From a virus (lineage: Duplodnaviria; Heunggongvirae; Uroviricota; Caudoviricetes), in the IMG/VR virus record IMGVR_UViG_2823670853_000002: DNA of 64,000 bases, one strand, 5' to 3'. The notes below the pieces were generated by a model. That model made no database searches. It saw only the letters and a list, made by a program, of their open reading frames with translations, and had not been told where the DNA came from. The position numbers were made by a program, and so were the translations under genes. Shown piece after piece: positions 30,399 through 30,616 of this stretch (its first letter is position 1; each line of letters opens with the position of its first letter).

Positions 30399-30425
30399 GA
30401 AAAAAACGCCCACCCGAAGATGGGC
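30399..30425 (-). terminator. Rho-independent terminator with UUCG tetraloop
   Basis: Minus strand GCCCATC-TTCG-GGTGGGC followed by GTTTTTTTC. Confidence 0.75.
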
Positions 30426-30580
30426 AAACTGGAAGCTCGTAACGCACTTCGGCGTTGCCACTTAGGCGCATGGTCAACCTGGCAACTCGGTGGTTTGTCT
30501 GGGAGGACTAGGCCCAGCCATGCTTACCGCCGCGCCTGTCGCGGCTAACAGCTAAATCGCTCTATAAATCACGATTCATT
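30400..30580 (-). ncRNA. Candidate ~180-nt structured RNA/leader between C1-controlled promoter and terminator
   Basis: Successive hairpins GCCGCG..CGCGGC, CTGGG..CCCAG, GTTGCCA..TGGCAAC, then the terminator. Only a 15-codon ORF inside. 5' end inferred from the -10 TAATAT. Confidence 0.4.
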
Positions 30581-30588
30581 GAGGCGAT

Positions 30589-30616
30589 ATTACACTAATA
30601 AATTTATTAGAGCAAT
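30589..30616. promoter_or_regulatory. Bivalent (overlapping inverted) C1 operator, ban-operon type
   Basis: Minus ATTGCTCTAATAAATTT (30600-30616, 17/17) overlapping plus ATTACACTAATAAATTT (30589-30605, 15/17). Minus-strand -10 TAATAT at 30592-30587. Confidence 0.7.

Follow-up and report, generated by a model that had tools for sequence, protein, structure and literature searches.

Phage P1 is among the best-studied phages and DicF is among the oldest known bacterial sRNAs. In phage T4, two small, stable structured RNAs, species 1 and species 2, are co-transcribed with the phage tRNAs and released by processing, and in Bacillus the EAR RNA, a pseudoknotted RNA of ~120 nt lying within eps operons, promotes read-through of downstream terminators. 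RNAs of the put type bring about factor-independent suppression of termination via the zinc-binding domain of the RNA polymerase beta' subunit. The put RNAs of HK022 consist of two stem-loops spanning ~70 nt and are nascent RNAs found near repressor-controlled early promoters and upstream of terminators in phages without N (PMC9378689). At the dicF locus, DicF is released by termination and RNase E/III processing (PMC5069750, PMC9438474). It has a terminated form of 53 nt and a read-through form of 72 nt, and the RNase E cut that makes it falls ~20 nt after the conserved element described below (PMC5069750).

The DNA analysed here, called the window, is a stretch of 64,000 nucleotides from a Caudoviricetes virus (IMG/VR record IMGVR_UViG_2823670853_000002). 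Positions 29700-30900, read on the minus strand, share 99.2% identity with phage P1 (NC_005856 / AF234172) and 96% with P7, which marks the window as that of a P1-type phage. Features below lie on the minus strand unless stated otherwise. The subject is the leader of the ban operon, a cassette which holds a pseudoknotted domain of ~95-125 nt followed by a strong intrinsic terminator. This domain, supported by covariation, lies beside DicF in lambdoid prophages and heads the P1 ban operon, and has neither a name nor an Rfam family; it is carried by more than 4,000 complete E. coli genomes and ~600 P1-type plasmids.

Compared with these systems, the locus is like putL and putR of HK022 in placing a structured nascent RNA near a repressor-controlled early promoter and upstream of a terminator. 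However, put is ~70 nt long with two stem-loops and occurs in two copies, whereas the P1 element has ~100-125 nt, three hairpins with a loop pseudoknot, and a single copy. EAR and the P1 element are both pseudoknotted operon RNAs, but they differ in host group and in sequence, and the P1 element has no Rfam match. Species 1 and 2 of T4 can be likened to it by description, with the difference that a terminator sets the P1 element apart from the tRNAs. Real homology is found with the dicF locus of the Qin prophage, which has the same layout of structured element, short linker and terminator hairpin; the homologous part is, however, the ~95 nt upstream of DicF, and P1 has no DicF match and a different hairpin.

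The control region, terminator and reading frames of the leader

Under the coordinates of the leader, NC_005856 lists the end of dmt, the divalent C1 operator Obanab (formerly Op72ab), the promoters P1ban and P2ban and a misc_feature called "dicF-like region", and the operator is annotated likewise in the P7 GenBank record. These annotations make the control region a known one. It agrees in sequence and position, without any difference, with the C1/Bof-controlled Op72ab/Pban of the P1 ban operon, as the bivalent operator, P1ban and P2ban are annotated exactly here. The preliminary description of this stretch, made from the letters alone, had proposed a perfect C1 operator overlapping an inverted 15/17 copy, a minus-strand -10 TAATAT beneath them and C1 control of the RNA that follows, and all of these correspond to the known Op72ab/Pban. 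Op72a (Obana, 30600..30616) matches the 17-bp asymmetric C1 site ATTGCTCTAATAAATTT at 17/17 positions with 0 mismatches, is annotated in NC_005856 and contains the dmt stop codon. Op72b (Obanb, 30589..30605, plus strand) is the inverted 15/17 copy, ATTACACTAATAAATTT, with 2 mismatches, and is supported by the detected inverted repeat and by the P1 and P7 annotation; it overlaps Op72a by 6 bp. Ten C1 operator-like sites with up to 3 mismatches occur in the window, against 0.3 by chance.

The promoter P1ban (30587..30615, annotation transferred from NC_005856) is made up of the -35 hexamer TTGCTC at 30615-30610, a 17-bp spacer and the -10 hexamer TAATAT at 30592-30587, the last being the hexamer noticed earlier. 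It is not called by a generic promoter scan because only 8/12 consensus positions match, which puts it below the threshold, and it stands as P1ban in GenBank. We infer a transcription start near 30580, which gives 181 nt to the U tract and agrees with the ~180 nt first estimated between promoter and terminator.

The intrinsic terminator (30400..30426) has a stem of 7-8 bp, GCCCAUC (30425-30419) pairing with GGUGGGC (30414-30408) around a UUCG loop (30418-30415), followed by one G and by U7 at 30406-30400. With this G+C-rich hairpin and U run it has the form of an intrinsic (Rho-independent) terminator, and its folding energy of -12.8 kcal/mol (z = -3.9) is equalled in 0/200 shuffles. The terminator earlier described, with a 7-bp stem, UUCG loop and U7, is real; the stem is not all G-C as had been stated, having five G-C pairs, one A-U and one G.U. 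It is kept in P7, in D6, in an E. albertii plasmid and in the MINF_7C plasmid with changes that preserve the pairs, the G.U pair not being conserved, and it is present in both the MFE and the centroid folds of the leader. Between core and terminator lies a variable linker (30427..30449), which is 10 nt shorter in plasmid NZ_LR890273. On the other side of the core, a weak 5' hairpin AAUCGUG..CGAUU (30553..30578; -7 kcal/mol, z -0.8, not significant) is probably, to judge from a comparison of the flanks, what remains of the long boundary hairpin found ahead of the element in lambdoid relatives.

The tRNAs, hairpin modules, tci genes and ban do all lie beyond this terminator, as had been pointed out. 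On the basis of P1 genetics (the bac and Op72 work), we take it that Pban drives ban. The notes in NC_005856 state that Op72ab controls ban, and no other promoter is annotated there on the ban strand before the tRNAs, tciABC, trnI and ban, so that some polymerases must pass the leader terminator.

The 15-codon ORF reported between promoter and terminator (MAGPSPPRQTTELPG, 30474..30521) is present inside the core but is not conserved. Its P7 counterpart reads ATGGCGGGGTAG, with a stop after 3 codons, lambdoid relatives stop after 8, and 1-nt indels are common in this region across the family. The ORF is judged to be non-coding on these comparisons, and the role once considered for its translation finds no support in them. 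The same lengths of 15, 3 and 8 codons and the indels dispose of a leader-peptide attenuator, in which a conserved short ORF would set the fold. Opposite-strand ORFs that appear in some annotations were likewise rejected, being broken by stops and 1-nt indels.

A conserved RNA domain shared with lambdoid prophages

A sensitive blastn search of the leader against phage genomes returned P1-like phages and ~45 lambdoid phages, with the lambdoid matches limited to bases 30544-30450 at 74-79% identity (75-78% for the 95-nt core). The lambdoid carriers include mEp460, cdtI, Stx2c and Stx2a converting phages, PPompW, Ayreon, a Salmonella phage and an Actinobacillus phage. A search for more distant homologues that took the copy of this last phage as query gave back the same ~60 phage records. 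Furthermore, the element occurs together with DicF in 4,564/5,426 complete E. coli genomes, and P1-type copies are found in 611 plasmid records as two main sequence types with rarer variants. Additional copies, in E. albertii, Citrobacter, Serratia symbiotica, Trabulsiella, Erwinia tracheiphila and Izhakiella, came from scanning viral contigs and one genome per species for the pattern.

In the lambdoid phages the copies belong to the early-left operon, where the repressor gene precedes them and dicB or kil follows. In the cdtI and Stx2c phages the element comes ~370 nt after the repressor gene cI with no gene between, and in the Qin prophage of E. coli K-12 it is found, behind three ORFs and ~800 nt into the operon, where a non-coding gap separates ydfC from dicF. 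By the Rfam DicF model, DicF follows the element at a distance of 20-25 nt in lambdoid prophages (25 nt in mEp460). Among 27 representative members, 25 have a hairpin with a U tract 32-135 nt downstream of the element, and the two exceptions show a weakened U run or a decayed DicF. These downstream hairpins (DicF, DicF-like GGCGG stems or the P1 stem) are unrelated in sequence. The element comes and goes as a block: in D6 the terminator and the region beyond it are the same, with both the element and the operator missing, and plasmid NZ_LR890273 has D6-type upstream sequence with the element, again without the operator, and with terminator changes that keep the pairs.

The "dicF-like region" of NC_005856 (68791-68892) corresponds to window positions ~30492-30391 and covers only the 3' half of the element. 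The Rfam DicF model (RF00039), which spans the seed region and the GGCGG..CCGCC terminator hairpin, has no match in 29700-30800 or in 30150-30640 at E <= 10, while the same model scores 76.7 bits in mEp460 and in Qin, and the P1 terminator hairpin is unrelated to the DicF hairpin. On these two counts the leader is not DicF itself; the label, read against these comparisons, records homology to DicF's neighbour, the ~95 nt upstream, and not to DicF. An Rfam search for the hairpin series, suggested in the preliminary description, yielded no Rfam 15 family for 30439-30563 at the gathering threshold or at E <= 10; scans of the P1 leader gave only chance-level matches overlapping the terminator, and the Qin copy is also unmatched. 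In the literature searched by topic and by sequence string the element is undescribed, although its conservation may have been noticed before, and the P1 RNA-seq papers do not mention the leader. What was known before comprises the operator, the promoter and the bare label "dicF-like region". As judged by its alignments, the domain is an unnamed conserved RNA family common to the P1 leader and to lambdoid prophages.

The fold of the core (30450..30545) was derived from the blastn matches to lambdoid phages, alignments, pair counts and a covariance model. It begins with hairpin P2, of the form CCGCG-loop-CGCGG (30544-30540 with 30534-30530), and the 4-bp helix P2a, in which CGGU (30529-30526) pairs with ACCG (30491-30488), the family pattern being CGGY/RCCG. 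Hairpin P3 (30517-30513 with 30503-30499) has a U/C-rich loop, a property found in all family members. The helix P4, of 7-8 bp in the family, joins GUUGCCA (30486-30480) to UGGCAAC (30460-30454) and encloses a 19-nt loop with the invariant GGUUGACCAU at its start. The pseudoknot pairs GCAUGG (30523-30518), in the interval between P2a and P3, with CCAUGC (30473-30468) in the P4 loop, following the family pattern GYAUGG/CCAURC. P1 has the full set of family features, namely P2, P2a, P3, P4, the GYAUGG/CCAURC pseudoknot and the invariant CAGGUUGACCAU loop, and a covariance model built from the family (model R1) finds it in the window at 30563-30439 with 97.9 bits and E 3e-30. The outer helix GUUGUGG/CCACAAC of the lambdoid members is absent in P1. 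Many bases of the core are both invariant and unpaired.

Comparative support for this fold comes from pairing that is kept while sequence changes. Across 73 distinct sequences, standard pairs fill 95.6% of cells, compared with 29-56% when the 3' partners are slid by 1-3 columns. Changes on both sides occur in 11/36 pairs in the MAFFT alignment and 13/36 in the model-fitted alignment, against 0-5 in the slid controls; these covariation figures are somewhat inflated, since close E. coli relatives make up most of the 73 sequences and the model itself guided the second alignment. The observed pairing and covariation values were reached in 0/500 shuffles. The P3 stem varies freely with its pairing kept (GGGG/CCCC, CUGGG/CCCAG, CAGGUG/CACCUG, CCCGGG/CCCGGG, GGGU/ACCC), and P4, with variants such as GUUGUCA/UGACAAC, GUUGCCA/UGGCAAC and GUAACCA/UGGUUAC, has compensatory changes in 6/8 pairs. 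One covarying pair is seen in the pseudoknot (U-A 67, C-G 3, U.G 3) and one in P2a (U-A 68, C-G 4, U.G 1), and because each has only this one, these two helices are supported but not proven.

The P1 group gives a further comparison. Between P1, P7, an E. albertii plasmid and NZ_LR890273, the differences fall exactly on compensatory positions, in P3, in the pseudoknot (C-G versus U-A, with U.G intermediates) and in P2a, which speaks for selection on the fold in P1-type phages too and not in lambdoid phages only. Thermodynamics does not single out the leader, with an MFE z of -0.97 for the whole leader and z of -1.0 to -1.3 for the core, and single-sequence folds do not reproduce the covariation model. 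As such, the description of this RNA as highly structured needs comparative evidence: folding energy (z about -1) does not sustain it; covariation does. The three further hairpins seen in the initial reading do exist, and coincide with P2, P3 and P4.

A separate observation concerns the loop of P3, where 29 of the 42 distinct versions show an anti-Shine-Dalgarno-like sequence (UCCUU, CCUCC or CUCC). This could point to an RNA or ribosomal target and is to be taken as a lead, not as evidence.

Proposed release, read-through and function of the domain

The initial alternatives for the leader were a discrete repressor-controlled sRNA and an antitermination or attenuation leader gating the operon, and both appear to survive in modified form. 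We tentatively prefer to read it as a self-contained cassette of structured RNA and leaky terminator, the opening member of an array of stable RNAs at the 5' end of the ban operon. Upon loss of C1, RNA polymerase would start near 30580 and transcribe the domain, which would then fold. Most polymerases would stop at 30400-30406 and a discrete RNA of ~180 nt would be released, with its folded domain as the functional product and not solely a cis-acting signal, while a minority would read through to supply the downstream RNAs, tciABC and ban. None of this would involve translating the 15-codon ORF. The dicF locus offers a parallel for release, having the same layout and yielding its RNA by termination and RNase E/III processing (PMC5069750, PMC9438474). 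A stable RNA released in this way would be a new phage effector RNA.

Simple leakiness may, however, provide too little ban and tRNA expression, because a hairpin of -12.8 kcal/mol followed by U7 looks efficient. An efficient-looking terminator therefore favours active antitermination over simple leakiness, and the rival that fares best, unlikely as we consider it, makes the domain a processive antiterminator RNA that acts in cis, in the manner of HK022 put or Bacillus EAR. Once folded, it would bind RNA polymerase during transcription, alone or together with Nus factors, carry the enzyme past the adjacent terminator and make it resistant to Rho over the ~1.5 kb of untranslated RNA beyond, so that only transcripts bearing the element would reach the tRNAs, the tci genes and ban. 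Consistent with this, the P1 element comes just after a repressor-controlled early promoter, with the cdtI and Stx2c copies similarly close behind cI, and the element sits upstream of an intrinsic terminator that the operon must pass in the 25 members noted above. An RNA that binds a macromolecule would be expected to combine, as here, a complex fold with many invariant unpaired bases. In three carrier phages, the ORFs on either side of the element included no recognisable N-type antiterminator. Moreover, the downstream region should be sensitive to Rho because it is long and untranslated, and DicF itself has terminated and read-through forms (PMC5069750).

Other findings sit less well with antitermination. 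The put RNA has two copies, but the element has one per locus and, by model R1, one in the whole cdtI genome, where, as in every locus scanned, no second copy was found downstream of PR. The put arrangement of two stem-loops of ~70 nt, with copies after PL and PR, is not seen, and model R1 has no match in HK022 at 28-36 kb or 24-30 kb, the expected immunity region; a homologue of put is excluded by sequence in this searched stretch and by its different shape (PMC9378689). D6 retains the terminator without the element, the Qin element lies far into its operon, and the flank that resembles boxA is an arm of the upstream hairpin. Should the domain nevertheless prove to be an antiterminator, it would add a third kind to the factor-independent RNA antiterminators and would account for expression of dicB, kil, ban and the phage tRNAs beyond strong terminators with no N protein involved. 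Defined compensatory mutants make the mechanism directly testable.

It is improbable that the leader is instead a base-pairing sRNA of the DicF type, in which the 3' part (linker, terminator hairpin and U tail) would act through Hfq and the conserved 5' domain would have no more than an accessory part in biogenesis or stability, such as fixing where RNase E cleaves. The layout is that of the dicF locus, with its RNase E cut shortly after the element (PMC5069750), the 3' modules vary between phages as sRNA seeds do, and the U7 tail of P1 suits Hfq binding. Against this, P1 has no match to the DicF model even at E <= 10, its linker is not conserved, as the shortening in NZ_LR890273 illustrates, and a pseudoknotted domain of ~100 nt with invariant loops far exceeds the needs of a processing signal.

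The core would be very improbable as a functionless passenger in P1, a piece of lambdoid prophage DNA captured by recombination beside an ordinary terminator. Its presence or absence as a block, exemplified by D6, and the loss in P1 of the outer helix and boundary hairpin would suit a passenger, but the element is kept in the 611 P1-type plasmid records and the differences between P1, P7 and the other variants are compensatory in three helices. Least probable of all is a ligand-sensing riboswitch or structural attenuator whose aptamer state decides terminator formation: the pseudoknot and invariant unpaired bases directly upstream of a terminator are aptamer-like, but no conserved pairing that competes with the terminator was found, the domain is constant while the terminator stems are unrelated across members and stand at variable spacing, the terminator forms in the MFE and centroid folds and no Rfam riboswitch matches, which leaves the attenuator with competing structures, one of the options first raised, unsupported.

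A probable array of RNAs at the 5' end of the ban operon

The conserved 5' flank of lambdoid members, AGUGCUCUYUYCGUUGUGG, forms the 3' arm of a long hairpin that lies upstream and whose two arms change in step between lineages (GGUAAGAGCAUU/AAUGCUCUUUCC, CGAUGAGAGCAUUG/CAGUGCUCUCUUCG, ACGAAAGCGCACGG/CCGUGCGCUUCCG), and for this reason the outer helix GUUGUGG/CCACAAC competes with that hairpin. The compensatory changes in this hairpin also ruled out AGUGCUCUYUU as a boxA-like site for Nus factors. The boundary and outer-stem motif (AGUGCUCUYUYCGUUGUGG ... CCACAAC) flanks structured RNAs in T1-like, N4-like and other phages as well, and one of these RNAs is distantly related to the element, with a score of 13-18 bits that owes most to the boundaries. 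In P1 itself four further cassettes carry the motif, the boundary part of which is met four to five times in the rest of the ban operon. Because of this recurrence and of the flanked RNAs in other phages, the P1 leader looks like a cassette with degenerate boundaries that opens an array of untranslated RNAs, as the reading of structured RNA and leaky terminator would have it. We read the next units of the array as the tmRNA-like RNA, hairpin-bounded cassettes and three tRNAs, together occupying the first ~1.7 kb of the ban operon. This 5' 1.7 kb would then be an array of conserved RNAs that includes a tmRNA-like tag RNA common to many unrelated phages.

A much bolder proposal, to which we give little credence, is that the leader domain is the founding and best-conserved member of a superfamily of mobile, hairpin-bounded phage RNA cassettes (in lambdoid, P1-like, T1-like, N4-like and Vi01-like phages) acting on the host translation or transcription machinery. 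In P1 it would form, with the tmRNA-like message RNA and the tRNAs, a device redirecting ribosome rescue or tagging, or else would represent a new class of RNA antiterminator for stable-RNA operons.

The tmRNA-like RNA (30396-30217) follows directly after the leader terminator and is conserved. Its message UAAAU GCA AAC GAU GAU CUG AUG AUG GUA GCG GCC UAA encodes ANDDLMMVAA and has the GCA resume codon, hydrophobic end and stop of a tmRNA tag frame. Rfam tmRNA models align to the message part only, with 24.1 bits against a cut-off of 47 (24-27 bits overall), and the E-value, when scaled to the whole window, is not significant alone. A tRNA-like domain (acceptor stem with G3.U70, T arm, CCA) was not detected, and neither the window nor any of 28 related loci gives a tmRNA with ARAGORN. 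A survey from 2014 recorded phage ssrA only in mycobacteriophages, Bacillus phage G and DS6A (PMC4131195). A two-piece tmRNA made of the element and the tag RNA was considered and rejected, since their complementarity (-62.6 kcal/mol) does not exceed that of shuffled sequences (-70.7 +/- 5.6 kcal/mol); it is also contradicted by lambdoid carriers that have no tag RNA and by the lack of conservation of the G.U pair in the terminator stem.

Stronger evidence comes from wider comparison. By blastn, the 30217-30396 region is found in 293 phage records from unrelated families (Vi01-like, N4-like and T1-like phages and phages of Aeromonas, Klebsiella and Serratia), usually upstream of tRNA clusters. 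The tag frame was compared in 131 instances, representing 32 DNA versions and 16 peptides such as ANEEMYLAVA, and always has 10 codons and a stop. Variation is greatest at its third codon positions, and the two alternative frames are for the most part closed.

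A tmRNA-like RNA beyond the terminator

Directly 3′ of the intrinsic terminator in the ban leader lies a tmRNA-like message RNA (30217-30396, minus strand), whose tag frame (30338-30306, minus strand) has a GCA resume codon and encodes ANDDLMMVAA in 10 codons before a stop. Homologues of this RNA are present in 293 phage records from unrelated families, usually with tRNA clusters downstream, and the length of the tag frame is constant at 10 codons plus stop in 131 of 131 instances (32 DNA versions), with synonymous changes. ARAGORN detected no tRNA-like domain in the RNA, the Rfam tmRNA models scored below threshold on 30217-30396, and the P1 record carries no annotation for it. 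In two N4-like phages, ARAGORN placed a tRNA-Ala(CGC) approximately 120-190 nt upstream of the tag RNA (L163, 1311-1382; L236, 11041-11112), which the record annotates as a pseudo-tRNA. As tmRNA is charged with alanine, this tRNA could be of interest.

The cassette array of the ban operon

At the 5′ end of the ban operon, the untranslated stretch 28881-30216 (minus strand) is an array of repeated cassettes, which are found at 29710-29560, 29514-29441, 29281-29164 and 29020-28881 (minus strand). Long hairpins of the CACAACAGGUAAGRGC ... GCYCUUWCCGUUGUG type form their boundaries, with hairpin modules at 30216-30140, 29779-29695, 29564-29496 and 29081-29002 and an inverted repeat at 29360-29261 (all minus strand), and the boundary motif is also present in 91 of the 278 phage loci fetched. 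Inside the module at 29695-29779, 3′ of tRNA-Thr, lies a T arm of canonical appearance, GGGUUCGAAUCCC; comparable T-arm-like inserts occur in hairpins upstream of the conserved pseudoknotted element in Erwinia (L154) and Izhakiella (L157), and also in locus L170. NC_005856 places the ORFs plp and upl on the strand opposite the cassette array, and they may therefore not be real genes.

Apparent mobility and surroundings of the pseudoknotted element

Phage D6 retains the terminator and everything downstream while lacking both the element and the C1 operator (L158, 1300-1530), whereas the D6-like plasmid NZ_LR890273 carries the element, without the operator, inserted at exactly the point of the D6 gap (L161, 1040-1380). 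The element thus behaves like a block that can be moved.

In the K-12 Qin prophage, the interval between DicF and dicB (L006, 1992-2201) matched the Rfam sRNA family STnc100 below threshold, scoring 34.4 bits (cut-off 47, E = 9.5e-5), and contains a GUGGUGAAUGCGGCUGAGCGCACGCGG motif resembling the cargo of the P1 and T1-like cassettes. Serratia (L139), Trabulsiella (L151), Erwinia (L154) and Izhakiella (L157) have a longer DicF-like terminator hairpin 50-115 nt 3′ of the element, and there it encloses a Shine-Dalgarno sequence and AUG (GGAGG..AUGUUCUACCG) from which the frame continues through the U tract. Next 3′ in these four loci is a conserved block, ..AAGAGCAUC.CCGG.CGACGGGCUCAUAACCCAAUCCA, also present in cdtI-type phages.

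Other known RNAs

Rfam also matched sok (48316-48490), the C4 antisense RNA (51947-52032) and its a1/b1 targets (52101-52153) in the window, which are P1 features as expected. The tRNA-Met(CAT) called by ARAGORN (28065-28140) is tRNA-Ile2 (trnI) in the P1 annotation.
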